This document shows positions 16,463 to 60,857 of a DNA stretch of 64,000 nt, piece by piece. The position numbers and the translations under genes are program-made. The DNA lies in NCBI GenBank assembly GCA_052143835.1, contig JBKQRV010000093.1, positions 3,135 through 67,134 of the forward strand, written 5' to 3'. Origin of the DNA: Alphaproteobacteria bacterium (lineage in GTDB: Bacteria; Pseudomonadota; Alphaproteobacteria; JACZXZ01). The first letter of the stretch is position 1; each line of letters opens with the position of its first letter. The notes under the pieces are model-generated. The model made no database searches, was not told the DNA's origin, and saw only the letters and a list, made by a program, of their open reading frames with translations.

Positions 16463-16484
16463 AAGGAGCGGGCCGGATTTGAGG

Positions 16485-25794: not shown

Positions 25795-28209
25795 ATGCCC
25801 GGCATGACGCCCGAATCGCCGATCGAGCCTCGCCCGTACGGCCCCCGCTGCGGCGATCTCGCACTCATGACCGGGGTTCTTGCCGTGTGGCTCGTCGTGC
25901 ACGCCGCATTCTGGCGTCGTCTGATCCTTCACGATGCCTGGCTATACAATTTCCCTGCACTCTTCGGCGTCAGCAAGGCCATGGCTTGCGCCGGCATGCC
26001 GGATTGGCTGGGGACGGTTGACTCCGGGACCCCCATCAGCATCTATACCTCGGCCTTCACGCTGACCAATCCGCTCCGCCTTGCCTTGCTCTTCCTCATG
26101 AGCTGCCTCAAGCCGGGCGTCGTCGGAGCGGTCTATTTTCACAAGGTCCATATTCTCCTCCTCTATCTTTCGTTCGCGTTCGGGACGTTCGTGATGGGCC
26201 GCGTGCTGTTCCAGCGCGCGCTCTCCGCCATCTATCTTTTCGCGGCCGTCCTGTTCGCCGGCTTGTGCATGGAGACCATGCATTCCGACCAGACCGTCCT
26301 CATTCTCTTCTGGCTGCCCTGGATTGTGATTTGCGTCGCTCGATTCCACTACGAGCCGGCAGGGCCCCGGGCCCATTGGTATCTGAATGCCGCCGTCCTC
26401 TTTGTCGGACTCCAGGCGCTCGATGAGACGCCGCACTTCACGGCCTTCGCCGCCGGGCTGGCGCTGGTGCTCTACGCGGCACTCGAGCCCCAAGCCCTCC
26501 TCGCCGGCGTGCGTCTTCATTGGAAGCGGCTTTGGCCGGCCGTACTGGTTCTGGCACTTACGGCCGCTCACTTGCACTATCTCCTGGGCGAGCTCGGCCA
26601 CTATGCGTCCTCGCTGCGCTATGCCGTGTCCTTCCACGCGGAATTGCGGCTCGATCTGGCCAATCTGAGCGAGACCGGTTTCGCTCAGCCTAGCGCTTTC
26701 CTGGGATCCTTCCTGCCGCTCGCCTTCACGCGGACGTTCGACTCGCTCGCGGACGCCCTTCACGCCTGGTACGCCGGGCATGTGCTCGCGACCTTGTCGC
26801 CCGAGCGCCGCTTCTTCGTTTACCAGCTCGACGCGGTCATGTTCTTCGTCGGCATCATTCCCATGGTGCTGGCGGCGGCGTTTCTGTTGCAACGGGGTGC
26901 GGCTCGGCGCCGCGTGGGCTGGGGGCTTTTTGCGCTTCTGAGCCTTCTGGCGGCATTGCAGCAAAGTCGGCTCTATCTGCTGATCTTCGAGCTGCCGTTC
27001 TTCAATATCTTCCGCTCGTACCTTCTTCTCGCACTCTTCGGCATCTTTGCGGTGCTGGTGATGAGCGGATATGGCATGGATGCACTCCTCACGCTCGAGC
27101 CCGAACCGCGCCGACGCCTGGCCGGGCGGGCGCTCGCCGTCACCGCAGCGCTGGCAGGGGTTGCCGCCCTCCTGTTCCTTTGGCTCTTCACCTTGCCCGT
27201 GCCCACGACGGCCCTTCCTGCGGCTCGCTTCACGTTGCCGGAGCCGAACGTCCGGTTGCGTTACGCGGTACTCGTCGATGTCGGCATGTTGGCCTCCGGC
27301 CTCGGGGTCCTTGCCTGGGCGGCCTATGGCGCTGCCGACGTGCGCCAGGCGATGTCCGTCGCCATCCTCGTGCTGGCGCTTTCCCAGGCGGCCTACCAGG
27401 GCTATGTCTACCGCATTCTTGCCGTCCCGGTCGGCGAGGCCGTGGCGCGCTTCGGACTCGACGAGATCGACCGTAGGCCGATCCCGCAGGCCGCGGCCGA
27501 CGATCCTCGCGCGCTCACCCGCAAGCTCTGCACGACGTTCGCGCAATGCTATCTCTCGACGCGCGACACGGCGTCGCTTCGCCTCGATCACGAGGGGACG
27601 TTCTTCCGCAGCCTGGGGGAGGCCCTGTTCCAGCCCGGCCTCGAACGCCCCGTGGTCGAGGCGCTCACCGCGATCGGCCGTCCCATTTTCTGGAGCAGCC
27701 GACGCGCGGCACCCTATGCCGATGACGCCGAGCTGACGCGCGAGCTCAACGACCACGCCGCAGATATCAGCGAGAGGCTCGGCGAGCTGGTCTATGTCCG
27801 GCGCAAGGACCTCGATGCGCTCGGGCGGCCGCCGGACGGGGCGGCGGACCCGGTGCTGACTGACCTCGCCCGCGGCGTGGACTGGACGCATCTTTCCTAT
27901 CGCGCGGAAACGCCGTTCTATCTCAACGCCGCCATCGCCGATTTGCGCCATTGGCGGATCACTTTGGGCGGCAAGTTGGTGAGCGCCGTGCGCGGCAATT
28001 TCGGGGGGCTGGCTGCAGCTGTACCCGCTGGTGCTGGCGTGATCGAGCTCAGCTACGTCAATCGGGCAAGCCAACTCTTCTTCGCGACCCGACTTCTCAT
28101 GGGGCTCTTGGGACTCTTTGCCATGGCTTGGCTTATGCGCACGGGGACCTGCCGCACAAAGGCGGCGGGACCCGACAAAATTTCCGGACCTTCCGCGCGG
28201 CACGGCTGA
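25795..28209 (+). CDS. YfhO-like large membrane protein (putative GT-C-type glycosyltransferase), paralog 1
   Basis: About 800 aa; ~13 TM; ~250 aa soluble domain; a final C-terminal TM (LFFATRLLMGLLGLFAMAWL), the architecture typical of YfhO. Paralog of 58563..60857. Confidence 0.5.
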   Translation: MPGMTPESPIEPRPYGPRCGDLALMTGVLAVWLVVHAAFWRRLILHDAWLYNFPALFGVSKAMACAGMPDWLGTVDSGTPISIYTSAFTLTNPLRLALLFLMSCLKPGVVGAVYFHKVHILLLYLSFAFGTFVMGRVLFQRALSAIYLFAAVLFAGLCMETMHSDQTVLILFWLPWIVICVARFHYEPAGPRAHWYLNAAVLFVGLQALDETPHFTAFAAGLALVLYAALEPQALLAGVRLHWKRLWPAVLVLALTAAHLHYLLGELGHYASSLRYAVSFHAELRLDLANLSETGFAQPSAFLGSFLPLAFTRTFDSLADALHAWYAGHVLATLSPERRFFVYQLDAVMFFVGIIPMVLAAAFLLQRGAARRRVGWGLFALLSLLAALQQSRLYLLIFELPFFNIFRSYLLLALFGIFAVLVMSGYGMDALLTLEPEPRRRLAGRALAVTAALAGVAALLFLWLFTLPVPTTALPAARFTLPEPNVRLRYAVLVDVGMLASGLGVLAWAAYGAADVRQAMSVAILVLALSQAAYQGYVYRILAVPVGEAVARFGLDEIDRRPIPQAAADDPRALTRKLCTTFAQCYLSTRDTASLRLDHEGTFFRSLGEALFQPGLERPVVEALTAIGRPIFWSSRRAAPYADDAELTRELNDHAADISERLGELVYVRRKDLDALGRPPDGAADPVLTDLARGVDWTHLSYRAETPFYLNAAIADLRHWRITLGGKLVSAVRGNFGGLAAAVPAGAGVIELSYVNRASQLFFATRLLMGLLGLFAMAWLMRTGTCRTKAAGPDKISGPSARHG

Positions 28210-28377
28210 GGTGCGGTCGCGGAGCGCTCAATGCGCGGGCGACGTTGTAATCGCCGAAGGCTCACGCGCAAGCCTATATAGGCACGGGCGTCCCTGCTGC
28301 TTCTTGTTCCCCGGCACGCATCCGGCTAGAAGTAGCGACCAACCGCGCTCTTTGGCGCGGACGTCGGAGTGTCTTGG

Positions 28378-30015
28378 ATGACCGCTGGGGATGAACAAGG
28401 GGAAGGGGTAGGGGAAAGACGGCGAACGGGCGTTCGCCGGTGCTGCCGCGCGCTCATCGAGAGGCTGCCCATCCTCTACCTCGCCGCCGCGGCCATCGCC
28501 GTATTCTACTTGTGCGAGGACGAGCACGTGGCGGTGCACATCGGCTGGTACAGGGACAACATGCCGTTCCTGACCTACGGCGACGGAAACTTCGGGAGCG
28601 AGGAGTTCCTCAAGCAATTCCGCAACTTCGGCGGCTGGATCGAGTTTCGCGCGCGCTTTCTCACGTACTTCTTCCTGACGCTCGATCACTACTTGAGGTT
28701 CTTCCTTTACCAATACGTGCGGATTCCAAAAGGTCTCTCGATCCTATACGTGCCGGAGCTCGTCTCGGTCTTTCTGTTCTACAAGCTGATCAGGAACATC
28801 ACGGGCCACAGGATATCGTCGTTGTTGGGGACCGCTTTCTACGTCACCTCGATCGGGTTCACCTCGGGCCTCAGCCTGATGTTCATGCCGGGGAAGCCGA
28901 TGACGAACGTCATCTTCATCATCGTCGCCTATCTCTGCTCGGAAATGTGGAGAAGAGATCGCGACAGGCTGTTCGTCGAGCAGCCTATCGGCTTGCAGAT
29001 CGCCGTGCTGGCGACGATGTTCTTCGGCTTTAATTTCGACGAAGGCGATTTTTTCGCGCCCGTGATCGCGCCGCTGCTCTTCCCCTCGCTTTTCTGGCGG
29101 CGTGGTCGCCTGCCGGGAAACACCGCTCGAAACTGCCGCAACATTCTCGTCTATATTCTGCCGGTGCCGTGCTTCCTGTTCTTCGTGCTGGTCATCGTCC
29201 CGCACATTACGCGGACGTACTACGGCTATGACTTCGACTTCATTTCGACCGTTCTGGGTACGCACGACCCGCGCATGCATGAAGCCGATTATGGGCTCGT
29301 CGGCCGCTTCACCCTCGCGACGCTCTATTCGAATTTCCTGGCGCAGATGGGGACCGTCGTCGTTCCTTGGTGGCTCGACTCCGGCCTGGCCGTCGGAGCA
29401 CGGGGCGTCGTCAAGGAGCTCTCGCTGGCGATGCTTGTCGCGGGCGCTGTCGTGCTACCGGTGCTGACGCGCTATGCCGGAGCAAGGCTCGCCTACCGCT
29501 CGCTGCTGCTGCTCGGGCTGAATATTCTGTTCTCGGCACTTCTCAACGGCCGCCACGGCGTCGTCGTGGACGGGTACTATTACGGCTCGGCCATCGCGGT
29601 GTTCACGAGCCTATCGCTGGCCCTTGCCTGTCATGCGGCGTGTCTTCATCGTCCGACCGTTCGGCGGACCGCGATCGTCCTCGCCGCCTTGCCGATCTTC
29701 GTTCAGATCGGCAATGCCGTGAAATTCGAACGCGACAATCGGAGGCTCTACGCCACGCTTGTGCTCGAGTTTTATACCAAGAGCCCTTCCGACATTCGGC
29801 CGCTCTTCGCCGCACTCGATCCGCACCGCGGCGTCTCGACCGAGGAGCTCGATTGGATCTGGCGCCTTTGGAAGGAAGGAAAATGGGACGAGCTGCGCAC
29901 GGCCACCATCTCGCCGGGCGCCGTCTATCTCGTCGCGGAGCTTCGCCGCATGGACCAGCTTAAGGGGGGCCGTCTTCCCTCCGGGCTCCTCGGAGCCGAA
30001 ACAATCGCACGATGA
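28378..30015 (+). CDS. Family-A polytopic membrane protein, paralog (A')
   Basis: FRARFLTYFFLTLDHYLRFFLY..LSILYVPELVSVFLFYK and a YGYDFDFISTVLGTHDPRMHEADYGL block near-identical to 19537..21165. GGAG lies 9 nt before the ATG at 28378. Confidence 0.55.
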   Translation: MTAGDEQGEGVGERRRTGVRRCCRALIERLPILYLAAAAIAVFYLCEDEHVAVHIGWYRDNMPFLTYGDGNFGSEEFLKQFRNFGGWIEFRARFLTYFFLTLDHYLRFFLYQYVRIPKGLSILYVPELVSVFLFYKLIRNITGHRISSLLGTAFYVTSIGFTSGLSLMFMPGKPMTNVIFIIVAYLCSEMWRRDRDRLFVEQPIGLQIAVLATMFFGFNFDEGDFFAPVIAPLLFPSLFWRRGRLPGNTARNCRNILVYILPVPCFLFFVLVIVPHITRTYYGYDFDFISTVLGTHDPRMHEADYGLVGRFTLATLYSNFLAQMGTVVVPWWLDSGLAVGARGVVKELSLAMLVAGAVVLPVLTRYAGARLAYRSLLLLGLNILFSALLNGRHGVVVDGYYYGSAIAVFTSLSLALACHAACLHRPTVRRTAIVLAALPIFVQIGNAVKFERDNRRLYATLVLEFYTKSPSDIRPLFAALDPHRGVSTEELDWIWRLWKEGKWDELRTATISPGAVYLVAELRRMDQLKGGRLPSGLLGAETIAR

Positions 30016-31673
30016 CGGCACTCCAGCCAGAGGCGACAGGCCATGGCGCCTCGCCGCGCAGCTTCCAACTCGCGCTCTTCGTAATCGCCTTGCTCTCGGG
30101 CCTCGCCGCGGCGTGGCCACCGCTTCATCTCGTCATCGTGAACGCCAATCTCGCCACCTATTTTCACGAGAACATCGGCTATCGCTTCTTCTGGGTGCTG
30201 CGCGCGATCGACGGCGCGCCGGGTGACTTCGTGCATCCGGGGCAGGGCGTGCTCCTCTCGCTCATCCAGGCGATCTACTATCTGGCGGGCAAGGCGCTGG
30301 GCCTCGATCTGTGGGGCCGGATCAGTCTCTTCGGCCACCTTACTCTCGGCGTCCCCACCGTCGCGACGGCGCTGCTGGGCTTGGCCATAGCGCTCGACCG
30401 CAGGCTCGAGCCCGGCGTTCGTGCGGCCCTCGTGACGGCACCGCTCGCGATGGGCCTCGGCCACACGCACATCTTTTCCTACAGCCTGTATCCGGACTAT
30501 ACCGCCTATGCCAAGCTGTTGTTTCTCCTCTTCGGCTGGCGCTGGTTGGCGCTCGGGGGATGGAATGGTATCGAATCGGCGCGAGCGGCCTCTGAGCTCG
30601 GCATCCTGGGAGGGCTTCTCGGCGCGCTAAAGCTGAACTATGCGTTCTTTCCGGCCGGTCTCCTGCTGGCTTCCCTCGGCGTGACCGCGGCACTTCGCCC
30701 GCGCATGGCCCTTGGCCTCGCGGCGCTCGTTGCCGCGGTCGCTGCGGCGACGATGGGGGGGCTGTTTCTCCTGCACTATGGCGGCAGCGTCCAGCCCATC
30801 TTGCGCTTTTTCGTCGTGCTCTCAAGCTTTTCGCGCTCGCTTTCCGGCGCACCCGGCCTTTCGATCGATCCCTTCGCAAGCTGGTCCACCAACAACTACT
30901 CGGACCTTGCTTGGCGTGCGGCCCTTATGGCCGCACTCTGCGCGTTGATGATCGGACAGCGGCGGGCAAAGGCTCTGTTCTTTGCCCTCGTCTTGGCGGC
31001 CATAGGTGCCATCGCCGTGATGCTGGCCTATTGGCGCGGCGGCGGGACGAGCTACTTCGACGCCGTCGTCATGCTCAGCATCCTCTCTGTTCTTGCCGCC
31101 GCGACCTTCGCCGGCCGGCGCGCGCGGAATTACGCATCATTGGTGCTTGCGGGTATCTTCGTGGCATGGCCGGCCGCTTGGGTCGCCTCCAACTGGCAGA
31201 TTTACGAAACGGACCATGGGCTGCTGCCGGACCTCGAACTTGCGGGGGATTGGCAGCGCGGGCTTTACAATTGGAACCGGGCGCAGCACTTGCCCGTCTA
31301 TGTGCTGATGCCGTCGAATAGCTTTCCGCAGGGGACCATCGAGGACATGATGCTGCGCGGCATGACCAATTTCAGCGATGATTGGGGCGTCGCGAACCAG
31401 AACCCGACCCGTGAAGCGCTGTTCCCCGAGTTTCACATCGTTTCCTACAACATGTTCGACATGTTTCGGCCGCCCCCGCGCTATGTCTTCATGTGGGTGA
31501 CAGGCAAGCGCCCCTTTCCACTGGTCGACCAGGCGACGCTCGATCGCCAAAACAAGGAAGTGGATCGCCTGTTGAGCGGACGGCGCCGTGAGGCGTGCTA
31601 TCGCGTCACGCAGGCAATCACGGGAGCCGAGATCATATCCTGCGTTGTGAGCTTGGCTGACGATCGGCCATAG
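30012..31673 (+). CDS. Family-B polytopic membrane protein, paralog (B')
   Basis: Colinear with 21316..22938; the ATG overlaps the stop of A' (ATGA). Confidence 0.55.
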   Translation: MTALQPEATGHGASPRSFQLALFVIALLSGLAAAWPPLHLVIVNANLATYFHENIGYRFFWVLRAIDGAPGDFVHPGQGVLLSLIQAIYYLAGKALGLDLWGRISLFGHLTLGVPTVATALLGLAIALDRRLEPGVRAALVTAPLAMGLGHTHIFSYSLYPDYTAYAKLLFLLFGWRWLALGGWNGIESARAASELGILGGLLGALKLNYAFFPAGLLLASLGVTAALRPRMALGLAALVAAVAAATMGGLFLLHYGGSVQPILRFFVVLSSFSRSLSGAPGLSIDPFASWSTNNYSDLAWRAALMAALCALMIGQRRAKALFFALVLAAIGAIAVMLAYWRGGGTSYFDAVVMLSILSVLAAATFAGRRARNYASLVLAGIFVAWPAAWVASNWQIYETDHGLLPDLELAGDWQRGLYNWNRAQHLPVYVLMPSNSFPQGTIEDMMLRGMTNFSDDWGVANQNPTREALFPEFHIVSYNMFDMFRPPPRYVFMWVTGKRPFPLVDQATLDRQNKEVDRLLSGRRREACYRVTQAITGAEIISCVVSLADDRP

Positions 31674-31779
31674 CATCGCGTCGACCGGCGCGGTGGGCTT
31701 TTCATTTCGTAGCGCCGGCGGCTCGGTCGATATAGTGTCGCTGAGGCTGCGCTCCGCTTGCGCGGGAGACCCCGCTGGA

Positions 31780-34059
31780 ATGACAGATTCGCCGATCATG
31801 GTCGCCGTCGCCCTTGCCTGGATCACCGGTCACTTTGGCCTTTATGTGGCATGCAGGCTTCGTGGCGGCAGCCTTGGCAAGTGGCAGGACGTGCTGAGCT
31901 TCCACCTCGTCTCGGCGGCGGGACTTGGGGCGGTCATTGCCGGCCTGAGCGTGCTCGCGTGGAGCGCCAATGCGGCGATGGCGGCAGCAACAGCGCTGGC
32001 GCTGCACGGCGTCTACAGCTTGGCAATGCTGGAGAGTTGGCCGCTGCTCGAGGCGAGCCTCGCGCTCGCAGGGGCGGAGAGGACGGCGTACCGCGGCGCG
32101 GTCGGCGAGATCACGTTTCTCGACCGCATCGATGGGCTGATGCGCCGATCCGCGCGGCTGCTCGCGATTGCCGCCTTCATCGCCCTCTTCGCAGCAGTCG
32201 CTTGGTATTTGCTGCTGCGCCCGATCTACGCCGCAAGCTTCATCGAATATTATATGAAATATCTGCCCTTCCTGACCGACCACGGGTTGCGGGGCATCCT
32301 CGATCTCGCGGCCCTGGGCGATCCGCGCCCACGCCTCCTTCCCTTGCTCGGTGCCGTCGTCAACGTCGATCTTCGGCGGGCCTTGCTGCTGCTCGGCCCG
32401 ATGCATCCATCGTTCGGCATCGCTTGGCTGATCTATCCCGCAGCTCTCGTAGCTCTCTACTGGGCCGTTTATCTCTTGTGCGGGCGGAGGACGCCGGCGG
32501 TGATCGCGACCCTGCTCTATGCGGCCTCGCCCGGGCACCTCGACATCCTGGTAGACTATTACATACCAGCCAAGCCGCTCGTAAATTTGTTCTTTATCAC
32601 GGCGTTGGTGGGTGTGGGGTTGAGCGAGCCGCACGCCTTGCTGAACAGGCGGCCGCGCCCTTTACTCGGTACGAGCATCCTGTTTCTCTCGGCGCTCGGC
32701 GGCGTGCTTTCGGACGAGACGGCGGTCTTCCTGATCTCAACGGCCGGCATCCTCGCGCTGCCGCGCCTACTCGACCGCAGCGCCGGAGCTGTCCGGAGGC
32801 TGGCGGCGCCGGCCGCACTTGTCGCGGCCCTCTTGATCTATGTCTCGATCGGCTTCTTCGCGTTGCCGGCGATCGCCGAGCGCCACGGGTATGCGGTCGT
32901 CCCCCTCGGCGTCGTCATGTTGCGCGGCGTCTATGCGGCGATGTTCGGCACGGAGCAGCCCCTCGGCGCATTTCTGCACGGCATCCACTCCGGCAGCTTG
33001 CTCGAGACCATCGTGTCGGCGCACACGGTGCTGGGTCGCGCCGTCGTCGGAGATTGGACGTACAATCGCCCGCCGCGACCCTTTTGGGACGCAAGTGCCC
33101 GCGAGTACGGCCAACAGCTCGCGGTCCTCATCGCGTTCGCGGCTCTCCTGTTGTCGGTCAGTCGCGCGCAACGCCGGCTCCTCTGGTCCCTCGTGCTGGC
33201 GTTCGCGTTGTTCGTATACGGGCAGGCGGTGATGATCTATCCGCTTGCTCCCTATTTGGTCGAAGTGAACTATTACGCCGGCCTCTCGTCCATCTTCGTG
33301 GCCCTGCTCGTCGGCCTGCTGCTCGGCGATTTTGCCGAGCGCAAGGGCTGCCTGCCCCTCGCGGGGCTCGCGGCCGCGTGGCTCGCCTTCACCAGCTTCT
33401 CCAACTTCCTCGCCACCGCGCAGCGGCACCCCGGTTTCACCGATGCGCCGTTGACCTGGACGGACCTGCGCGAGGCCCGCGCGCGCGCGCTGGCCGGACA
33501 GCTTCTCGATATGCCGGGAGCGGCCGGCTCTCCCGACGGGCTCCCGCATCGCGGCCGCAAGTACCTTTACGCGCTCGAGGTTGCGATGGCGCGGCAGCAT
33601 GCACGGGGCGAGCGCGTGGACATCCAACCGCTCCAACCGCTCGCGAGCGCTCCCCTTTATCGGAGTCTTCACCTGGAAACCCTGTTCGACACCAAGATTC
33701 CGCGTTTGGCACAGCCCGGTCCCGCCACCCTTGCGGAGGCAAGGGGCAGCGCCGGCGCTACGGCCGCGGCACTCGGCGTGGCGTCGCTACAAGGCCGCCG
33801 TCTCCGCGGCAGCACCGCCGAGTGGAACGTCGACATCACGATTGCGGAGAACGGCGTTGTCCGCGGCACGGTATGGCGCCCCGGCCTCATGCGGCTCTGG
33901 GGCATGACCGGCCGTCTCGCGCGGGGGACGGAAGGCGACTGCCTCGTCTTCGATCAGGCCCCGGCACTTTGTATGGCTACGCTCGTCACGCTCAAGGATG
34001 GCCTCTCCGCGTACGACGCCGGCGGCCGGTGGGTCCTCGCCTTCCACTACGTGCGGTGA
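31780..34059 (+). CDS. Family-A-related large (about 760 aa) polytopic membrane protein with long C-terminal domain
   Basis: PRLLPLLGAVVNVDLRRALLLLGP..PSFGIAWLIYPAALVALYW matches the family-A motif. The ATG at 31780 is in frame with the GTG-initiated track ORF 31693. Confidence 0.5.
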   Translation: MTDSPIMVAVALAWITGHFGLYVACRLRGGSLGKWQDVLSFHLVSAAGLGAVIAGLSVLAWSANAAMAAATALALHGVYSLAMLESWPLLEASLALAGAERTAYRGAVGEITFLDRIDGLMRRSARLLAIAAFIALFAAVAWYLLLRPIYAASFIEYYMKYLPFLTDHGLRGILDLAALGDPRPRLLPLLGAVVNVDLRRALLLLGPMHPSFGIAWLIYPAALVALYWAVYLLCGRRTPAVIATLLYAASPGHLDILVDYYIPAKPLVNLFFITALVGVGLSEPHALLNRRPRPLLGTSILFLSALGGVLSDETAVFLISTAGILALPRLLDRSAGAVRRLAAPAALVAALLIYVSIGFFALPAIAERHGYAVVPLGVVMLRGVYAAMFGTEQPLGAFLHGIHSGSLLETIVSAHTVLGRAVVGDWTYNRPPRPFWDASAREYGQQLAVLIAFAALLLSVSRAQRRLLWSLVLAFALFVYGQAVMIYPLAPYLVEVNYYAGLSSIFVALLVGLLLGDFAERKGCLPLAGLAAAWLAFTSFSNFLATAQRHPGFTDAPLTWTDLREARARALAGQLLDMPGAAGSPDGLPHRGRKYLYALEVAMARQHARGERVDIQPLQPLASAPLYRSLHLETLFDTKIPRLAQPGPATLAEARGSAGATAAALGVASLQGRRLRGSTAEWNVDITIAENGVVRGTVWRPGLMRLWGMTGRLARGTEGDCLVFDQAPALCMATLVTLKDGLSAYDAGGRWVLAFHYVR

Positions 34060-35642: not shown

Positions 35643-35649
35643 TGCTTTG

Positions 35650-36873: not shown

Positions 36874-37327
36874 CATCGCGGGTCCTGCGGCGGCAAGCCG
36901 GTCAAGGAAGCGATGGAACGCACCCGACGTGCAGTCATTGTTATCGCCTCGACCCTTGGAATTCACGCGCCGTCTGATCGCAATACCGGTCCCAACGGGT
37001 ATACCCGGCCCGCGAATGTGGCCCGGTAGATTGGCCGGGGCAAGCCCCGCGCGCAAAAGACCCGCATTCCACCGAATCGGCCTGCGATGCGCAACCTACA
37101 GCGGCCGCTTTCCCCTGTCAAAGTCGTCGCCGCGCGGGTCTGCTGGAGGCTGGTCCCGGCGTCGGCGTCGCCGCAAGGCTCTCGCGAGCGCTGCCCTTGC
37201 GAGCGCTTGCTTGAGGAACGTGGTGTGGTAACATGGCGGCGTCACCCTTCGGGTACTCGGCAAGCTCATCGGGCCGGCGCAAGCCGGTCGCCGAATCTCC
37301 TGCTCCCATTTCGTGCGTGCGCCGCTG

Positions 37328-38722: not shown

Positions 38723-38873
38723 AGCGGCAGGCGGGGCTCGAAAGCTGGGACCTCAGCCTCGAGCGGATCGTGGCCGGAGACGACGAGTCGGCCTTACGTC
38801 TCGAACCGCTCAAGCCGAAAGCGGGCGAACCAGGTATCGAGCCTTGAGTGACGGAAGCGAGCAAAGGAATGAA

Positions 38874-42253: not shown

Positions 42254-42875
42254 GATGCTCGGCCGGAACAGGATTCAAGGAATCCCGGTGCTTCCGCCGA
42301 TCCTTGCGCGGAAGCGACGCTCAACGCGCTGCCCCGCAGGCCGCTCCACTAGGCCACCTTGGACAGGCCCTTGCCGAGGAAATCGATGAAATGGCAGGAA
42401 ACAGCCAAGAATGCCAGAACCAGGACCAACGTGGCGGCATGGACGGCGTGGGCGTGCGACCACGGGTCGGAGTTGCCCCCAAGGCTGAAGGCGCCGGCGG
42501 CGATGCCTGCAATTCTCGGCTGTCCCGGGAATTCACGCGCGCCAGCCCTTGCGCTCCGGCAGCCGGGCTCTCGGCACGCGGCCTCCCTTGGAAGCAACGC
42601 AGGACTTGAATGGACATGTTCCGCATCTTGAGCCTGGCAACGTCGTCTGCGTGCCCATCTTTACGATAGCATGAGGTAAAGGCAGGCTGAAGTCCCTTTT
42701 GCGCAGCAACGTGACGTGGCATTCTCGCCGCTCATCTGAGGGGGGCCGGGCGGCCAAAATCGGACGTACGCACCTTCACCTCCTCGGCCCCCAAGTTCGC
42801 CGTCGATCCGGGTCCACCTTGCTGCATAGGCCGAAATGGCGCATTCTGACGCGTGCAAGGCCGGTCATTGGGGGA

Positions 42876-43859: not shown

Positions 43860-44063
43860 GGTCGGCACAGTACACATGACGCGCAAGGGCGCCCCGCGCT
43901 GGCTGATCGTTGCCGCATCCAATCGTTCACCGCGATCCGACGGGCAGCTTCCTGGAGCTGTTATATGGCAAGGTCTTTCTATTGTACGTCGTGCGCCCCA
44001 TCTGCGATGGGATTGTTCGTGGCAGCAAGAGGCAATCGAGTTTTCTCACGGTCTGCTCGTGTT

Positions 44064-45311: not shown

Positions 45312-45313
45312 GA

Positions 45314-51185: not shown

Positions 51186-51644
51186 CGCCCCTATGAATCC
51201 GTCCTGATGGTCTCGTATGCCCTGCAATATCGAATCCCACCTGGCATCCGCGCAATATGCCGACGCTTGGCCGAATCTACGCGCCCTTGGCCGCAGGCGC
51301 CAGGGTCGCGATGTCCAAGGTCACGAGGAGATAGTTTCTGGACGAAGCTGCCGCGTTCTCGCCTTCTTCACCCCAGCGACCGGTGCGCTCGAGCTACTCC
51401 CCGTACGGGCGCGAAAGGGCCAAGTCGGCCATTAGAGAATGGTGCGCGCCGCGCCCGGCGCCGGAAGCCTTGCGGAAGGCGCCTTTAGGCTTCCGCGTAT
51501 CCCAGCCGAATGTTATCTTTCTTGGTCATTTGGGGACTGTCGGCAGAATGGCTTCGCCGTTCGTCGCAAGACGGCGACTGGCGGACCAGCGGCGGGTGAC
51601 GTCGGGCGCCGAGGTGCGGCGATTCGCGTGAGGGGACGAGCGCA

Positions 51645-52970
51645 ATGGTCGTTTCGAGGGCTGGAGACATGCGCGAAATCCGGGTTCCCTACGACGACGA
51701 AATCGTGTTGCGCGTGCCTGCGGGCGAAGCCGCTTCCGAGCCGCTCCTTTCGATCGTGATCCCCGCGATGGACGAAGCGGCCGTGATCGGAGAATTTCTC
51801 GGCTGGTGCCGCGAGGGAATCGCGAAGGCGGGAATCGCCGCCGAGATCATCATTGTCGACAGCTCCAGTGACCGCACGGGGGAGATCGCCCTTGCCGAAG
51901 GCGCGCGCGTGCTCACGACGCCGAAACGCGGGCTCGGACGCGCCTATATCGATGCCATTCCCTTCATACGCGGCCGGTATGTGCTGATGGGCGACGCCGA
52001 CTGTACCTATGATTTCCGGGAGCTGAACGGGTTTGTCGAAAAGTTGGAGCAAGGCTACGAGTTCGTCATGGGATCGCGCTTTGCGGGCGCCATCGAGCCC
52101 GGGGCGATGCCGGCGCTGCATCGTTACTTCGGCACACCGCTCACGGGTGCCATTCTGAATCTGATATATGGCACGCGGTTCTCCGATATCCATTGCGGGA
52201 TGCGCGGTGTGACCCTAGCAGCGTTGCGCGCGATGATGCTGCAGTCCCAGGGATGGGAATATGCGTCGGAAATGCTGATCAAGGCGACGCGACTGGGCCT
52301 GCGGACCGGCGAGACGCCGGTAAAGTTCCTGCGCGACCGCGCGGGCCGCGTAAGTCATCACAGGCGTGCGGGATGGCTCTCTCCCTGGGCGGCCGGATGG
52401 AACAATCTAAAGGCGATGCTGGTCAGCGGGGCCGACTTCTTTCTGATCAAGCCCGGCCTGGTGCTGCTGGCGATGGGCCTTGCGCTGATGCTGGCGCTGG
52501 TCGGTGGACCGATCACGGTCGGAAGGGTCACGCTCTCTCTGAACGTAATGATGCTGGCGCTGACGATGGCGGTGGTGGGCCTGCAGGCCTGCCTGCTGGG
52601 CGGGGTGGCGCGCTCGCTGTACGACCTGCTCGGGCGGCAACGAACGCGCTGGCTCCAAGCGTTCTCCTATACGCGAACGACTCTGTTGTCGCTCCTGATG
52701 TTCGTCGCGGGACTGTGGCTGACTGGCAATTTCGTCGTGGAATTCGTCAACGCCGGCTATGCGATGCTGCCGCAGGAAACGGCGGCCAATCATCGAGCGG
52801 TATTCGGATTGTTCATGATCATCGCGGCGTTTCAGATCTTCATGGCGATGCTCCTGATGCATGGCGTGGCGGGTTTCGCCCCGCTTTACGACGCCAATAG
52901 CGTCGCCACCAGGGAGGCAGGCGTGGCGTCAAGAGGGGAGAAATTCAATCGGGCGAAGGTGGCGGAGTGA
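51645..52970 (+). CDS. GT2 polyprenyl-phosphate sugar synthase-like glycosyltransferase with C-terminal multi-TM domain
   Basis: LSIVIPAMDEAAVI, IIVDSSSDRTG, LMGDADCTYD; about 4 TM in the last 170 aa. Confidence 0.75.
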   Translation: MVVSRAGDMREIRVPYDDEIVLRVPAGEAASEPLLSIVIPAMDEAAVIGEFLGWCREGIAKAGIAAEIIIVDSSSDRTGEIALAEGARVLTTPKRGLGRAYIDAIPFIRGRYVLMGDADCTYDFRELNGFVEKLEQGYEFVMGSRFAGAIEPGAMPALHRYFGTPLTGAILNLIYGTRFSDIHCGMRGVTLAALRAMMLQSQGWEYASEMLIKATRLGLRTGETPVKFLRDRAGRVSHHRRAGWLSPWAAGWNNLKAMLVSGADFFLIKPGLVLLAMGLALMLALVGGPITVGRVTLSLNVMMLALTMAVVGLQACLLGGVARSLYDLLGRQRTRWLQAFSYTRTTLLSLLMFVAGLWLTGNFVVEFVNAGYAMLPQETAANHRAVFGLFMIIAAFQIFMAMLLMHGVAGFAPLYDANSVATREAGVASRGEKFNRAKVAE

Positions 52971-53042
52971 AAAGGCTAGTAGGCCACGCCGGGCCCCACG
53001 TGCCGGCTGTTCGATGTGCGGGGCGCGGCAGGGCTAGGCGCT

Positions 53043-53723: not shown

Positions 53724-53756
53724 TGAAGACCCTGGAACTTTTTTTGAGAACAACAT

Positions 53757-55808: not shown

Positions 55809-55875
55809 CGCGATGGCCGCTCGGCGCGCCGAGCGCCGACCGCGCTGGCGACGAACTCGCTTCCGCGCGTCGGCG

Positions 55876-56352
55876 TCAGATGTCGTTCCCGTGCTTGAAG
55901 AGGCGACGCAGGCGCTCGTAGACGGCCACGATTCGCCCCCCCGCCGCGGTCAGCGCCAGGCCCTCCGGGCCGGCGCTGAGAAAGCCGGCCTGGATCAAGC
56001 GGCTTATCCGCGCCTCGGTCATGTTGCGTCCGCTGTAGAGCCGTGCCACCTCATCGGGACCGAGCGGCTGCCGCGACAGCCTCGACAACAGGTTGGCCGA
56101 CACGCTGCTGAGCGTGAACGTGAACAGAAATATGTAGAGATTGCAGAGGAACGCATAGGCGAGCACGCCGGTGATCAGCTCTGCCGACAAAGGGCCGTAG
56201 CGAGCGATCAGCCATAAGATCAATAGCAATCCGACGGTGCTGCCGACCGCGAGAAAGCGGAGCACGCTGTTAGCGATGAGCCCCAACCGTCCGGCCAAGG
56301 CGTGCAGGCCGAGCGAGACCAGGAAGAAAAGGAACCCCGAGATCAACGACAT
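55876..56352 (-). CDS. Small membrane-anchored protein with C-terminal winged-helix-like domain, paralog 1
   Basis: About 3 TM, then MTEARISRLIQAGFLSAGPEGLALTAAGGRIVAVYERLRRLF. Start taken at MSLISGF. Confidence 0.45.
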   Translation of the reverse strand: MSLISGFLFFLVSLGLHALAGRLGLIANSVLRFLAVGSTVGLLLILWLIARYGPLSAELITGVLAYAFLCNLYIFLFTFTLSSVSANLLSRLSRQPLGPDEVARLYSGRNMTEARISRLIQAGFLSAGPEGLALTAAGGRIVAVYERLRRLFKHGNDI

Positions 56353-56477
56353 ACGGAGTGAGGGCGGCCGTGCCTGGAATGGCGTGGGGCGGAGACGGCC
56401 ACGTGGTTCTCCCTGAGGTGCCCGACCGAGTCTCGTCCCGCTGGCGGGCCGCATTGGCGAGACTGCCGCGGCGCTGT

Positions 56478-56984
56478 CTAGCCCGTATCCGCGTAATTGG
56501 CAAGCCAACGAAGCATGCGGATCGCACCCCCGACAAGCTCGCCTCTGCCGGTCAGGCGGTAGCGCCCATCATCGAGGCAAAGAAGACCCAAGGCGCTCAG
56601 CGACCGCAGCCGTTCCGTCTTCTTGGCCTCGCCGGTTCGGGCGAATTCGTCCACGAGCGTGTCAGGGGTCGCGCTGCCGCGGCGCCTGACTTCGGCAAGG
56701 ATGGCAATCGAGTAGCTGATCTGCGACAGGGACCAAAGCTCCAGGAACGTGATGCTGTAAAGGCCGTGCAGCATGACGAGGCCCAGACCCGCGACGAGCA
56801 GCCGGTAACTCCCGGCGAGCACGCCGGGCAGCAGGACGGCCGCCGAATAGAGGCAGCTCGATATCGCATGATAGGCGAAGATAGTTGCTTCCCGTCTGAA
56901 GCCGGCAAGGTGCCGCAACAAGGCGAGATACAGCGCCAGATGAAGCACGAGATAAGCGACCGCGACGAGATAAAGCTCAACCAT
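56478..56984 (-). CDS. Small membrane-anchored protein with C-terminal winged-helix-like domain, paralog 2
   Basis: MVELYLVAVAYLVL.. (3 TM), then a soluble C-terminus ..RLRSLSALGLLCLDDGRYRLTGRGELV. The SD AGGAGAG lies 7 nt upstream of the ATG at 56984. Confidence 0.45.
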   Translation of the reverse strand: MVELYLVAVAYLVLHLALYLALLRHLAGFRREATIFAYHAISSCLYSAAVLLPGVLAGSYRLLVAGLGLVMLHGLYSITFLELWSLSQISYSIAILAEVRRRGSATPDTLVDEFARTGEAKKTERLRSLSALGLLCLDDGRYRLTGRGELVGGAIRMLRWLANYADTG

Positions 56985-57555: not shown

Positions 57556-58566
57556 ATGAGTGATCTTGGAAGCCGCCGCGAGAGGGACGTTCGGCCGCCG
57601 GGCGGCCTAGCGACGGCCGGTCGTGGACGCACGCGGACGCCCACCCCCGCATCGGACACGCCAAGATGCAGCGTCTGCGGCTGCAGCGAGCGCGTGCCCG
57701 TGTTCCATGCCCGCGATTACGAGCACGGCGTGCCTGGCGAATGGCTGGTCGTTCGCTGTCCCCGATGCAATCTCATGTTCCTCTCGCCGATGCCGGCGGA
57801 CGAGGAGCTGGCTTCATTTTACCCTTCGAATTACTCGGCCTATCAAAGCGGTTCGCCGTTGGCCTGGTTGTTTCGTAGCGTCTATCGACTCGACGCGCGG
57901 CGCATTCGGCGGCTCATCGGCGAGCGCGGCCGCATTCTCGACGTCGGCTGCGGCAACGGCGATGCGCTTCTCCAGATCGGGCCGTACGGAAAGTGGGACC
58001 TCTGCGGCGTCGAGCTGAACGGTGCGGCGGTCGAGAAGGCCAGGAGTGCCGGTGTTTCGGTCCAGCAAGGTGACCTCGCCAGCTGCAATTTTCCGGATGC
58101 GAGCATGCGGCTCATCCGCATGGGGCACGTCATCGAGCACGTGCCCCGGCCGGCCGACACCTTGCGGCGTGCCTATGCGTTGCTGGAGCCGGGGGGCGTG
58201 CTCTATGGCGAGACGCCGAGCACGGATTGCCTCGATTTTCGTTTGTTCGGCAAATACTGGGGGGCTCTCCACGTCCCGCGCCACCTTTTTTTCTTCGACG
58301 GGCGCAATCTGAGGCGCGCGTTGGAGCAGGCCGGCTTCGTCGACGTGTCGATCGCGCCGCGGCTGAGGACGGTCGGTTGGTCGTGCGGCGTGCAAAATTA
58401 CCTGGCCGACCGCGCCGGCCTGCGCATACCGGAAGCGGGCCGCGTGCGCTGGTATCTACTTCTCATCATTTGTTTTCTTCCGCTCACGCTCCTGCAGTCG
58501 CTATCCGGCAAGACGGCGACCGTCGCGTTCACGGCGCGCAAACCCGGCGGCGTGGGCCGTCGATGA
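57556..58566 (+). CDS. Zinc-ribbon + class I SAM methyltransferase
   Basis: CSVCGCSE..CPRCNLMF; ILDVGCGNGD; IRMGHVIEHVPRP; LEPGGVLY. Confidence 0.7.
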   Translation: MSDLGSRRERDVRPPGGLATAGRGRTRTPTPASDTPRCSVCGCSERVPVFHARDYEHGVPGEWLVVRCPRCNLMFLSPMPADEELASFYPSNYSAYQSGSPLAWLFRSVYRLDARRIRRLIGERGRILDVGCGNGDALLQIGPYGKWDLCGVELNGAAVEKARSAGVSVQQGDLASCNFPDASMRLIRMGHVIEHVPRPADTLRRAYALLEPGGVLYGETPSTDCLDFRLFGKYWGALHVPRHLFFFDGRNLRRALEQAGFVDVSIAPRLRTVGWSCGVQNYLADRAGLRIPEAGRVRWYLLLIICFLPLTLLQSLSGKTATVAFTARKPGGVGRR

Positions 58567-60857
58567 TGCTCGACTCCAGACGGCTCATGCTGGCCGTCGC
58601 GTTTGCCTGGGCGGCGCTCCACCTCGCCTTCCTCGGACAATTCATCTATCACGACAGCTGGAAGCACAACTTTCCCATGCTCTACGACCTCGCGCAGCAG
58701 AGCAGCTGCCGCGGCCTACCGTCTTGGCTCTGGACTCCCGATAGCGGCACGCCGACGCTTATCTACGTCATCAGCACGAGCTTGACGCAGATTCTGCGCG
58801 CGCCGGCGCTTTATCTTCTGGGCTGCGTGCATCCCGGTCTCGTCGCCAGCGTTTATTACCACAAGGCGGTTACCTATCTCGGCTACTTCGGCTTGGCGCT
58901 CGGCATGTACGTGCTCGGCAGGCTGCTGCTCCAGCACCGCATGTCGGCGGTCTATCTGTTCGCCGCGACCCTCTTCGCCGGGCTTTGTCTCCAGGCGGCT
59001 CATTCCGACCAGGTCGTCACCATCACTTTCTGGTTTCCTTGGACGGCTGCCTGCGGCGTGCTCTACCACCGCCATTACGACTCCTTGAGCGGAAGTCGCT
59101 ATCTCAATCTCGCCGTTCTTTTCGTCTGCCTGCAGTCGTTCGACCAATATCCCCACTTCCAGGTCATTGCCGTCGGAGCCGCGGCCGCGATTTACGCGCT
59201 CTTCGAGCGGCGGCGCGCGCTCGCGGCCCTTCGCATGCACTGGCGGCGGCTTTGGCCTTCGGCGCTCGTGCTCGGCTTGACGATCTCGCATTTCCTGATC
59301 TTACGCGGCGCCGTGAGCGGCTACGCGCCGTCCCTGCGCACCGCCCTCGTCGTCGACCCCACCCTTTTCAGCGAAAGCGGTTTCGTGCAGCCAACAGCCT
59401 TGATCGGCAGCATCCTGCCGACCAGTCTGCTTGCCGGTTTCGAGGCGCTTAAAAGCGACATGGAAAACTTCTTTGAGTATTTGCGGGTGGCCCCGCATAC
59501 GGCTTGGTCAATCTTCCGCCTCGACGAGCTCGCCTTCTATGTCGGCGTCGTGCCACTCGTGCTTGCTGCCGTCTTCCTGTTGCGCCCGGGCATGGCGAGA
59601 TTGAGGCTCGGCTGGGTCATTTGGATCACCGTGATCTTTGCCGTGTCGCTGGAGCAGACGCGACTGTATCTCTTCTTGTTCCACTACGTCCCCTTCTTCG
59701 ATCTGTTCCGCTCGTACTTCCTGTTCATTCTGTTCGTGATGCTGGGCGTCCTCGTGATCAGCGCTTACGGCTTCGACGCGGTCCTGACCCTGCCCGACGT
59801 TGCGCGCCGCGCGGTGCTGCGGCGCGCCGGCCTCGCCCTTTTCATCATGGTTCTCGGGGCGGTCATCGCGCTCCTGTCGATGGCTGCTTTCGATCCGAAT
59901 CCCTTGCATCTGTTATTGACCCTCAAGGGGCCGCTTCTCAGGGACCTTCTCATCACTGCAGCCGCATACCCGGCGCTCCTTTACGCGGCATGGCCGAACG
60001 TTCTGCCTGAGCGCCGGGGCCTTGCCTTGATCGCGGTCATGGTGCTTTCGCAGGTGATTTACACGGCGGGCACCTATTCTCAGGTCGCGATCGCGCAGCC
60101 GCGGCTTTTCGCCGAATTCGGGCTCGAGCGCTCCGAGTTGGAGCCCTTCGATGCCGCGATCCGCGGCGACCCCAATGCGGTCCAAAGAAAGCTCTGCGCG
60201 CAATTCGCCGAGTGTTACCTCTCGCGCCGGCCGTCGGTGTCGCTCCGTCGCGACCTCGAGGGCACGTTCTTGCGGTCGCGGCGCGGGGCCGTGTTCGTTC
60301 GGCACCTCAGCCTGCCCGTCGCCGAGGCCCTGCTGGGGTTGACGATGCCGGTATTCTGGACCAGCCGTCACCTCGAGGAAATCGATTCGGATGACTCCCT
60401 CGTTGAGCGCCTAAATGCCCACGATACGGACATCGCGCTCTTTCTTCGCGAGGTCGCCTATGTCAAGAAGCGCGCCTTCGAAAAGCTCGCGGCCGGCCAG
60501 GATGCGGGCGGGGAATGGGCGGATCACGTCGAGCTGCGCAAGCTGGAGTGGGGCCGGGATGTCGTCCGGCTTTCATACAATGCCGATAAGCCGGTGCTCT
60601 TGAATGCCTCGATCACCTGCACGTCCGAGTGGACGGCCAGCGTTGACGGCAAGGAGATTCCGCTCGTTTGCGCCAACGTCGATGGACTCTTGCTGCGGCT
60701 GCCGCCAGGTGCAGGGACCGTCACGCTCCACTATCGAGACCGCTGGAGCGATTTCGTATTCGACACGCGGTATGTGCTTTTGGCAATCGCCCTCTTCGGC
60801 ATCATACGGTTGGCGGGAGCGGCTCTGCGGCGGCGTTCGGCCGCTTTGCGCCCCTGA
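58563..60857 (+). CDS. YfhO-like large membrane protein (putative GT-C-type glycosyltransferase), paralog 2
   Basis: Colinear with 25795..28209 (HSDQ(V/T)V.I.FW.PW, RKLC..FA.CYLS.R, terminal TM YVLLAIALFGIIRL). The ATG overlaps the upstream stop (ATGA). Confidence 0.5.
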   Translation: MMLDSRRLMLAVAFAWAALHLAFLGQFIYHDSWKHNFPMLYDLAQQSSCRGLPSWLWTPDSGTPTLIYVISTSLTQILRAPALYLLGCVHPGLVASVYYHKAVTYLGYFGLALGMYVLGRLLLQHRMSAVYLFAATLFAGLCLQAAHSDQVVTITFWFPWTAACGVLYHRHYDSLSGSRYLNLAVLFVCLQSFDQYPHFQVIAVGAAAAIYALFERRRALAALRMHWRRLWPSALVLGLTISHFLILRGAVSGYAPSLRTALVVDPTLFSESGFVQPTALIGSILPTSLLAGFEALKSDMENFFEYLRVAPHTAWSIFRLDELAFYVGVVPLVLAAVFLLRPGMARLRLGWVIWITVIFAVSLEQTRLYLFLFHYVPFFDLFRSYFLFILFVMLGVLVISAYGFDAVLTLPDVARRAVLRRAGLALFIMVLGAVIALLSMAAFDPNPLHLLLTLKGPLLRDLLITAAAYPALLYAAWPNVLPERRGLALIAVMVLSQVIYTAGTYSQVAIAQPRLFAEFGLERSELEPFDAAIRGDPNAVQRKLCAQFAECYLSRRPSVSLRRDLEGTFLRSRRGAVFVRHLSLPVAEALLGLTMPVFWTSRHLEEIDSDDSLVERLNAHDTDIALFLREVAYVKKRAFEKLAAGQDAGGEWADHVELRKLEWGRDVVRLSYNADKPVLLNASITCTSEWTASVDGKEIPLVCANVDGLLLRLPPGAGTVTLHYRDRWSDFVFDTRYVLLAIALFGIIRLAGAALRRRSAALRP

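Follow-up and report, generated by a model that had tools for sequence, protein, structure and literature searches.

Enzymes of the YfhO type are known almost only from Firmicutes, in which they decorate teichoic acids and Ser/Thr-rich proteins; their catalytic residues have so far been hard to pin down. Here we ask whether two large membrane proteins from an alphaproteobacterial contig belong to this type, and whether the methyltransferase gene that overlaps the second of them makes a coupled methylation-glycosylation step, as the original prediction proposed. The stretch analyzed, which we call the window, is 64,000 nucleotides long. Our reading, to which we give a probability of about 0.72, is that both are GT-C glycosyltransferases of the inner membrane, from a rare and deeply divergent YfhO subfamily, working in a polyprenyl-P-sugar surface-glycan pathway with a kit of neighboring genes. 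The features are listed in Table 1.

Table 1. Positions and supporting evidence for the window features discussed in the text.
Feature	Position	Strand	Size, evidence, and remarks
YfhO-like GT-C protein, copy 1 (putative)	25795..28209	+	804 aa; paralogy, family profile
YfhO-like GT-C protein, copy 2 (putative)	58563..60857	+	764 aa; AF2, Foldseek, weak Pfam YfhO match
MT23, zinc-ribbon class I SAM methyltransferase with hydrophobic C-terminal tail	57556..58566	+	Methyltransf_23, E 1.2e-27, above threshold
A2-family polytopic membrane protein	23073..25592	-	839 aa; divergent neighbor of copy 1; probably GT-C (tentative)
Methyltransf_11 methyltransferase	60999..61916	+	Pfam; downstream of copy 2
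M3-family polytopic membrane protein	62226..64000	+	tblastn frame; no Pfam match; cut by window end
Small membrane protein 1	55876..56352	-	158 aa; ~3 TM and winged-helix-like tail; called on public contigs
Small membrane protein 2	56478..56984	-	168 aa; ~3 TM and winged-helix-like tail; weak HVO_A0261_N (wHTH), E 0.0017
famA polytopic membrane protein	28369..30015	+	paralogy; adjoins copy 1
famB polytopic membrane protein	30012..31673	+	paralog at 21313..22938; ATGA overlap with famA gene
GT2, GtrB/ArnC/PgfS-type, candidate donor synthase	3642..4784	-	full-length PgfS 2e-67, ArnC 3e-43; C-terminal TM helices
GT2, AglJ/Dol-P-hexose/PpgS-like, candidate donor synthase	51645..52970	+	sequence matches; C-terminal TM bundle
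Flippase-like domain protein (MprF-type)	6028..7056	+	LPG_synthase_TM E 3e-47; TIGR00374 above cut-off

Both reading frames are real genes with the predicted boundaries, and they are full-length paralogs. Third-position GC is 0.80 in copy 1 and 0.75 in copy 2, in a window with 63% GC overall. On public contigs, independent gene callers arrive at the same products, of 764 and 336 aa, which again overlap by 4 bases, and copy 2 is identical to the NCBI entry 'hypothetical protein ACLQME_11505, Alphaproteobacteria bacterium'. Aligned over their whole length, the two copies are 40% identical (E 1e-162), positions 11-763 of copy 1 match the family profile (A1), and the same residue is found in both copies at 49/50 key conserved positions, including D31. 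Scans for promoters and terminators gave counts at or below shuffle expectation.

In YfhO, the last of 13 TM helices is preceded by a large extracellular loop (PMC5836110). The AF2 model of copy 2 (pLDDT 89.2, pTM 0.90) has this architecture, with 13 TM helices, a 218-residue periplasmic domain (509-726), and one last TM helix (727-756, pLDDT 94-96). All of the K/R clusters of copy 2 are on the predicted cytoplasmic side, and the positive-inside rule is obeyed at each loop. Copy 1 runs collinear to copy 2, and its final hydrophobic segment is at about 761-779. The YfhO topology claimed from the open reading frames, with about 13 TM helices, a large soluble C-terminal domain, and a final TM helix, is thus seen in the model as well as in the charge distribution. 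When the copy 2 model was compared with the PDB using Foldseek, the first match was ArnT (5f15; prob 1.00, TM 0.54 on target, 578 columns), followed by AftD, AglB, Pmt4, and AftA. The C-terminal domain is a beta-sandwich that resembles a carbohydrate-binding module, and parts of it match AftD locally (97-109 aligned columns, prob 0.98-1.0). When the PDB was searched by sequence, neither protein had a match, nor did profiles A1, A2, and A4, and no solved YfhO structure came up in the PDB searches made here. The modeling supports a GT-C membrane fold for copy 2. The original prediction had named two results that would speak against it, a structure prediction with no GT-C fold or a terminal segment that is not a TM helix; because the predicted fold is GT-C and the terminal segment is modeled as a confident TM helix, neither was seen.

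The best structural match, ArnT (GT83, the undecaprenyl-P-L-Ara4N:lipid A transferase, 5f15/5ezm), appears from the models to share with the window proteins a GT-C core, an acidic residue in the first periplasmic loop (EL1), and a pocket for a polyprenyl-phosphate donor. However, it is only 13-15% identical to them with no sequence-level match, it lacks a final TM helix after the periplasmic domain, and its periplasmic domain is different from theirs.

By sequence, the link to YfhO is found in profile searches. The gathering threshold of the Pfam YfhO model (PF09586) is 28.5 bits. Copy 1 has no Pfam match at all, and copy 2 reaches 20.7 bits (E 1.5e-4), below threshold, over the C-terminal 63 residues in the beta-sandwich only. 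Among the subfamily members, 16/33 match the model at E<0.01, the best at E 1.7e-8. The A1 profile reaches 14,835 proteins, and YfhO was above threshold in 7/10 of those sampled. In two of these, P0140 (E 3e-17, aligned over 40-535) and P0160 (E 6e-16, aligned over 111-500), the alignment covers the TM region, and both pass the Pfam YfhO threshold, at 58.6 and 66.7 bits. The clade to which the window proteins belong is sharply separated, with E of 1e-198 or below for its full-length members and 2e-47 for the full-length protein that comes next. It is also rare, with 35 clusters among 5.8 billion proteins, and subfamily loci were found in 185,579 species genomes only 6 times, all in MAGs. These searches support placing the pair in a separate, rare subfamily of YfhO that is tied to the parent family through profile searches only. 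Topology, GT-C fold, and the loop Asp described below support the assignment to the YfhO type; neither copy passes the Pfam threshold for the family.

The known members of the family (B. subtilis and S. aureus YfhO, Listeria Lmo1079, streptococcal PgtC2, PgfM1/PgfM2) share the architecture of the window pair; homology can be detected in their C-terminal beta-sandwich, and a profile search connects the proteins over the whole length. The hosts of the window subfamily, in contrast, are Gram-negative or Chloroflexota MAGs and not Firmicutes, and the periplasmic domain is shorter, about 218 aa in the window protein as compared to 389 aa in B. subtilis YfhO.

In GT-C enzymes, a conserved Asp or Glu in a periplasmic loop is expected, and we looked for it. 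In the window proteins, H30-D31 is found directly after TM1, in EL1. D31 is nearly invariant across the subfamily and is Asp in 10/10 of the distant superfamily relatives that cover the position. There is a second acidic motif, H147-S-D149-Q, at the periplasmic turn between TM3 and TM4 (EL2), which is HQEQ in relatives. In addition, C545 and C551 are invariant, C49 and C88 are nearly so, and all four are in segments predicted to be periplasmic. These residues bear on the view that the proteins are polymerases, ligases, flippases, or scaffolds that have a GT-C-like membrane core and are not transferases. No member has a known activity, and Rismondo et al. discussed whether the lipid intermediate might be flipped by YfhO itself. 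However, an Asp at the catalytic position, nearly invariant in the subfamily, and an acidic EL2 motif that is invariant there, both of them conserved in distant relatives, argue for retained catalysis, and we consider a role other than sugar transfer very unlikely.

We now turn to the methyltransferase, MT23, which was predicted to act with copy 2 in a coupled methylation-glycosylation step. It has the glycine-rich motif DVGCGNG, two CxxC pairs made up of the invariant C38, C41, C68, and C71, and a hydrophobic tail at about 295-315 that is conserved in the L012 ortholog (51% identical). The overlap is as described: the MT23 stop TGA (58564-58566) shares bases with the copy 2 start ATG (58563-58565) in the sequence ATGA. 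Co-transcription of MT23 with copy 2 would be expected, and translational coupling is probable; the tail would hold the enzyme at the membrane.

A stronger version of this idea is that MT23 and copy 2 are an obligate physical and functional pair, in which MT23, tethered by its tail, docks on copy 2, and methylation of the lipid-linked donor is needed for transfer and channeled directly into it. The same type of ATGA overlap is kept in loci L002 and L005, the tail is retained even at 51% identity, and in L001, where an in-frame deletion has removed the catalytic core of the MT23 ortholog, the Zn ribbon, the tail, and the overlap with the YfhO-like start have outlived the core, which could mean a structural role with the partner. 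On the other hand, the L001 deletion shows that the YfhO-like gene persists without methylation. ATGA overlaps are generic in the window, which has three of them, and in other lineages MT23 is placed differently and overlaps another gene: the L012 and L013 orthologs are downstream of the YfhO-like gene, and their overlap is with the A2-family gene. There is no MT23 beside copy 1, nor in L006-L011 or L014. Finally, a SAM enzyme must act in the cytoplasm, and the GT-C site faces the periplasm, on the opposite side of the membrane. For these reasons, the overlap lends little weight to a coupled step, an obligate pair seems improbable to us, and the association of MT23 with copy 2 is most likely at the level of the pathway and not of a single step.

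At least four more polytopic membrane families that have no annotation accompany the YfhO-like genes, in a kit whose conservation extends over Alpha-, Beta-, and Gammaproteobacteria and Chloroflexota MAGs. In the window there are about a dozen unannotated polytopic membrane proteins, including the YfhO-like pair. The A2 family adjoins YfhO-like genes in L001, L002, L005, L006, L009, L012, and L013, and it has an invariant D50 in the motif FPLFGEDGAFNY after TM1. The top 12 Foldseek matches of the A2 model are all GT-C enzymes (STT3, AftD), and we tentatively regard the family as GT-C, tentatively because the structure prediction is poor (low-confidence, pLDDT 55). The M3 family adjoins YfhO-like genes in L001, L002, L005, L007, L009, L010, L012, and L013; its frame in the window was set by tblastn with the 727-aa L001 and 580-aa L002 products. 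An open reading frame at 62252..63631, considered as the gene downstream of copy 2, is in the wrong frame, since tblastn places the true start near 62226, in a gene that is cut off by the window end. The famA family adjoins YfhO-like genes in L008, L011, L012, L013, and L014 and has only 11 database relatives and no Pfam match. It has paralogs in the window at 19414..21165, 40598..42253 (minus strand), 48038..49525, and 49647..51227 (minus strand), and a distant one at 31693..34059. The famB family is also present in L011. The Methyltransf_11 gene has the same position in L001, L002, and L005 and is also present in L007. Small membrane protein 1 is conserved with the module in L001, L002, and L014. 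We rejected the idea that the two small proteins on the minus strand are GtrA-type flippases, as they have no Pfam GtrA match and their C-terminal halves are soluble and winged-helix-like.

When scanned against Pfam and NCBIfam, the remaining polytopic proteins had no credible match, even at lax E-values. Comparison of the YfhO-like profile with A2, famA, famB, g31693, and g35 by hhalign gave no sign of relatedness (all probabilities below 8%), and the one related pair was famA with 31693..34059 (97%). This speaks against all of the large membrane proteins being YfhO paralogs.

The partners of YfhO are a GT2 and a flippase, and its targets are LTA, WTA, or Ser/Thr-rich proteins (PMC5836110, PMC8035078, bioRxiv 10.1101/2024.05.05.592596). 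The use of polyprenyl-P-monosaccharide donors made by GtrB/CsbB-type GT2s is presumed for the YfhO family and the window pair alike. Five donor synthase-like GT2s had been predicted in the window, and five proteins do have a GT2 domain, with genes at 3642 and 8817 on the minus strand and 38844, 46198, and 51645 on the plus strand. However, only the first and last resemble polyprenyl-phosphate-sugar synthases along their full length; two of the other three are GT2-methyltransferase fusions and one is soluble. The predicted flippase-like protein is present as well, and no GtrA-type flippase was detected in the window. The two synthase-like GT2s and the flippase-like protein are 7-55 kb from the YfhO-like genes, with no GT2 adjoining either copy. 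Compared to the known family, the window genes are outside of a two-gene GT2-GT-C operon, no GtrA partner was found for them, and they are embedded among unknown polytopic proteins and methyltransferases.

Alternatively, the target of the GT-C proteins might not be a dedicated polysaccharide: they might act on lipid A or the LPS core, like ArnT, or O-glycosylate proteins of the periplasm or the surface in the manner of streptococcal PgtC2/PgfM1. ArnT is the closest structure, streptococcal YfhO-family enzymes glycosylate Ser/Thr-rich regions of proteins, and the best named match of the minus-strand GT2 at 3642 is PgfS, followed by ArnC. However, many functions encoded in the cluster are of polysaccharide type (MBOAT with SGNH-like partners, Acyl_transf_3, and the dozen polytopic enzymes), the C-terminal domain is carbohydrate-binding-module-like, and in a non-systematic look we noticed no obvious Ser/Thr-rich acceptor gene. 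We regard a lipid A or protein target as rather unlikely, and we favor a surface glycan.

For the glycan pathway, we infer the donor, the acceptor, and the order of steps as follows. The two membrane-anchored GT2s would load sugars onto polyprenyl phosphate at the cytoplasmic face, where SAM methyltransferases, aminotransferases, and related enzymes would tailor these sugars; the most likely substrate of MT23 would be a sugar linked to a lipid or a nucleotide, methylated ahead of its export. The lipid-linked sugar would then be flipped to the periplasmic side, and the YfhO-like enzyme would transfer it to an extracytoplasmic acceptor. The periplasmic loops EL1 and EL2 (D31, H147-S-D149-Q) and a PFFDLFRSY loop may form the pocket for the donor phosphate, and the beta-sandwich may hold the acceptor glycan. 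Copies 1 and 2 could be two specificities of the sugar-transfer step. The polytopic A2, M3, famA, and famB enzymes would work alongside them, assembling or decorating a methylated, acylated surface glycan. The probable role of the kit as a whole is to build or decorate a methylated glycan of the cell surface, outside of the cytoplasm.

The mycobacterial AftA-D and EmbA-C enzymes, which use decaprenyl-P-arabinose, are a similar case in that many different GT-C-type enzymes are encoded together, AftD has local matches to the window beta-sandwich domain, and a glycan is built outside of the cytoplasm from polyprenyl-P-monosaccharides, as is proposed for the window. However, there is no sequence relationship, the host lineages and sugar pathways differ, and GT-C proteins in the window are limited to the YfhO-like pair, which is firm, and A2, which is tentative. 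A more speculative extension, which we think possible but would not bet on, is that at least five orphan families (YfhO-like, A2, M3, famA, and famB) are periplasmic-face glycosyltransferases or polymerases of a so far undescribed, laterally spread multi-enzyme system, of which the two YfhO-like genes would be the part that can be recognized. Membrane-tethered methyltransferases and two winged-helix proteins anchored in the membrane would also belong to it, and its product would be a polymer, heavily methylated and acylated, assembled from polyprenyl-P-monosaccharides. If true, this system would be a Gram-negative and Chloroflexota analogue of mycobacterial arabinogalactan/LAM assembly.

The association of YfhO-like genes with at least four unannotated polytopic families, one of them GT-C-like, looks to be new. 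The subfamily carries the YfhO superfamily into Proteobacteria and Chloroflexota, and the distant alignment offers candidate catalytic features for it, namely a superfamily-wide EL1 Asp (D31), an acidic motif in EL2, and an Arg/Tyr-bearing loop. The co-occurrence with the four families points to a testable and probably new extracytoplasmic glycan-assembly kit, and it offers a first lead to the function of families for which only 8-35 relatives each are known.

Copy 1 and copy 2, the two YfhO-like proteins of the window, are full-length paralogs with 40% identity across 776 columns (E 1e-162), in a stretch with a GC of ~63%. The stop TGA of MT23 (58564-58566), the zinc-ribbon methyltransferase directly upstream of copy 2, overlaps the start ATG of copy 2 (58563-58565), and in two public contigs with an identical protein the gene calls yield products of 336 aa and 764 aa that overlap in the same way. 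Coordinates, GC3 and independent gene calls therefore all agree with the two reading frames and the ATGA overlap of the original prediction. Its overall interpretation was partly supported: the YfhO/GT-C identity stood, but the specific coupled methylation-glycosylation step was judged less likely.

Features of the window
Feature	Position	Strand	Remarks
Copy 1, YfhO-like	25795..28209	+	804 aa; GC3 0.80, coding-type
Copy 2, YfhO-like	58563..60857	+	764 aa; GC3 0.75, coding-type
MT23	57556..58566	+	Methyltransf_23
GT2	3642	-	full-length match to PgfS 2e-67, ArnC 3e-43; C-terminal TM helices
GT2	51645	+	full-length match to AglJ 3.5e-33, also PpgS; C-terminal TM helices
Flippase-like protein	6028
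Deoxysugar-type genes	9964..14968 and 43965..46273		E1 alpha and beta, two DegT, PIG-L, C-methyltransferase (Methyltransf_13/14), 4,6-dehydratase-like
famA	19414, 28369, 40598 (-), 48038, 49647 (-)		paralog group; distant member 31693
famB	21313, 30012		paralog group
A2-family protein	23073	-	839 aa; own group
Polytopic membrane protein	35..1675		own group
Small membrane proteins	55876..56352 and 56478..56984	-	~3 N-terminal TM helices and a C-terminal winged-helix-like domain each
M3 gene	62226 to beyond 64000		about 730 aa; frame fixed by homologs; runs off window end

Family databases barely register these proteins. Copy 1 had no match in a Pfam scan, copy 2 had a single sub-threshold match (YfhO, residues 663-725, 20.7 bits against a threshold of 28.5), and searches of NCBIfam and PDB sequences with the YfhO-like proteins gave no match. 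The subfamily comprises 35 clusters among 5.8 billion proteins, and the cluster identical to the query is named only "hypothetical protein ... Alphaproteobacteria bacterium". Among 185,579 species genomes we found six YfhO-like loci, every one in MAGs (Stellaceae, at 94% identity, another alphaproteobacterium, Chloroflexota, Sulfurifustaceae and a betaproteobacterium). When A1, a profile built from 33 members, was searched against 1.84 billion representatives, a tight group stood apart: its full-length members score E 1e-198 or better, the next full-length protein scores E 2e-47, and a broad tail follows in which 14,835 proteins reach at least E 1e-3. Seven of 10 sampled tail proteins are above the Pfam YfhO threshold, and two of these (P0140 and P0160) also align with A1 across the membrane core; 16 of the 33 members have a YfhO match of their own (best E 1.7e-8). 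This gap, together with tail proteins that pass the YfhO threshold, places both copies, as judged from sequence, in a separate, rare and deeply divergent subfamily of the YfhO superfamily.

The AlphaFold2 model of copy 2, made on A1, is confident (pLDDT 89.2, pTM 0.90). It shows 13 TM helices and two long loops outside the cytoplasm, one at 23-92 that contains two short helices and one at 252-328; a soluble domain of mixed alpha/beta and beta-sandwich structure (509-726) precedes the last helix (727-756, at a pLDDT of about 95). Every arginine/lysine cluster lies at a predicted cytoplasmic end, so both termini are predicted to be cytoplasmic. The conserved cysteines C545 and C551 (invariant) and C49 and C88 (nearly invariant) are without exception in segments predicted to be periplasmic, a placement that fits periplasmic disulfides. 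In Foldseek against PDB, the top hit was ArnT (5f15, probability 1.00, 578 columns, TM 0.54 on target), followed by AftD, archaeal AglB, Pmt4 and AftA, all GT-C enzymes, while probabilities for transporters were mostly below 0.3. Separately, the beta-sandwich matched AftD locally, over 97-109 columns at an rmsd of 3-5 Å. Given this ranking and the confident last helix, both the GT-C fold and the terminal TM helix that had been proposed are therefore retained.

A conserved acidic residue in a periplasmic loop, as expected of GT-C enzymes, was also found. H30-D31, in the motif HDSWxHNFP directly after TM1, is nearly invariant within the subfamily, and D31 is Asp in all 10 distant superfamily members that cover the position when aligned to the profile. 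Also invariant or nearly so in the subfamily are H147-S148, W157-x-P159-W160, H198, P286, D321, P377-F-F-x-x-F-R383-x-Y385, D405 and R542, among others. P38, W55, G62, R120, P159, D321, G328, Y369, P377, R383 and G403 are largely kept in the distant members, as is the motif of the second periplasmic loop (HSDQ here, HQEQ in relatives). As candidate catalytic residues, D31 in the first loop and D149 in the second would correspond by position to the acidic pair of GT-C enzymes such as ArnT and PglB.

The window proteins share architecture, the C-terminal domain and profile-level homology with known YfhO, but they fall below the Pfam threshold, have a shorter periplasmic domain, occur in Gram-negative or Chloroflexota MAGs and lie in another genomic setting. 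Known YfhO enzymes, with a CsbB/GtrB-type GT2 and a GtrA flippase, glycosylate LTA or WTA (PMC5836110, PMC8035078), and streptococcal family members attach sugars to Ser/Thr-rich regions of proteins (bioRxiv 10.1101/2024.05.05.592596).

The whole window forms a single large glycan-type island. It encodes about eleven SAM methyltransferase domains, together with two aminotransferases of the DegT type, PIG-L, the alpha and beta subunits of a TPP-dependent E1, one sugar C-methyltransferase and one enzyme resembling a 4,6-dehydratase; MBOAT, two Acyl_transf_3 proteins and a desaturase are also present. The predicted flippase-like protein is present. Of the five GT2 proteins, all proposed to be polyprenyl-P-sugar synthase-like, two show full-length resemblance to such enzymes, but two are GT2-methyltransferase fusions and one is soluble. 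The fusions (38844..40319 and 46198..47805) have opposite domain order, MTase-GT2 and GT2-MTase, which suggests a link between glycosyl transfer and methylation at the cytoplasmic face. The deoxysugar-type genes resemble a route to an unusual deoxysugar, branched or amino; here ORF 10409..12040 overlaps 9964..10944 and probably begins near 10950 instead. In 15011..19035, two paralogous proteins (51% identical), each with an N-terminal anchor and SGNH-like GxS...DxxH motifs (GNSE / DPMH), come after an MBOAT gene, and a third such protein lies at 37313..38722 (GGS / DCCH). By motif reading, these resemble AlgI-AlgJ/X or DltB-DltD periplasmic O-acylation pairs.

MT23 combines a four-Cys ribbon with a class I SAM methyltransferase domain, and an ortholog at 51% identity keeps its hydrophobic C-terminal tail. 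Two Zn-ribbon Methyltransf_23 paralogs without this tail each adjoin a polytopic membrane-protein gene (1687..2703, 11 bases from 35..1675, and 42699..43859, divergent from 40598..42253). MT23 goes with the gene kit described below: besides the window, orthologs occur at L002, L005, L012 and L013, with a remnant at L001, and L002 and L005 retain the ATGA overlap with the YfhO-like gene. This overlap had been read as a coupled methylation-glycosylation step, and an obligate physical pair of MT23 and the YfhO-like protein is possible. We consider it less likely, however, because ATGA overlaps also occur between the two DegT genes and in the famA/famB pair, and because the ortholog of L012 and L013 is found downstream of the YfhO-like gene, where it has a 4-base overlap with the A2-family gene instead. 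No MT23 was found near copy 1 or in seven other loci. At L001 (9414..10004, 1.9-Mb contig), a clean in-frame deletion of residues about 88-282 has removed the whole SAM-binding Rossmann core, leaving the Zn ribbon fused to the hydrophobic tail; the remnant still abuts the start of an intact YfhO-like gene, whose product is extended to 814 aa in the public gene call. Moreover, SAM-dependent methylation must be cytoplasmic, whereas the GT-C site faces the periplasm. On our preferred reading, MT23 and copy 2 share a pathway rather than a single step, and MT23 would methylate a sugar still bound to a nucleotide or a lipid, ahead of export.

For about a dozen of the window's polytopic membrane proteins, there is no family assignment. 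famA, with five or six copies, and famB have no relative in Pfam, NCBIfam or PDB, and famA has only 11 database relatives. The famA-famB pair is duplicated (19414..22938 and 28369..31673; 59% and 57% amino-acid identity), flanking the A2/copy 1 pair on both sides. Using HMMs of the membrane-protein groups against twelve related loci, we found that YfhO-like genes recur with A2 (L001, L002, L005, L006, L009, L012, L013), M3 (L001, L002, L005, L007, L009, L010, L012, L013), famA and famB (L008, L011-L014), the 60999-type MTase and the two small winged-helix-tailed proteins (L001, L002, L014). ORF 62252..63631 (459 aa), overlapping M3 on the same strand, was rejected as spurious, since homologs support the other frame. 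The two small proteins, mutually unrelated and encoded divergently from the MT23/YfhO-like operon, are possible regulators anchored in the membrane. YfhO-like genes are in tandem at L008, L011 and L014, and the Chloroflexota locus has a canonical Pfam YfhO (36.5 bits) as its neighbouring gene. In A2, D50 is invariant in the motif FPLFGEDGAFNY after TM1, and although the structure prediction is poor (pLDDT 55), all twelve of the best Foldseek hits are GT-C proteins (STT3 and AftD), so we tentatively regard it as probably another GT-C protein. The whole kit of membrane families and methyltransferases may represent an undescribed multi-GT-C glycan assembly system.
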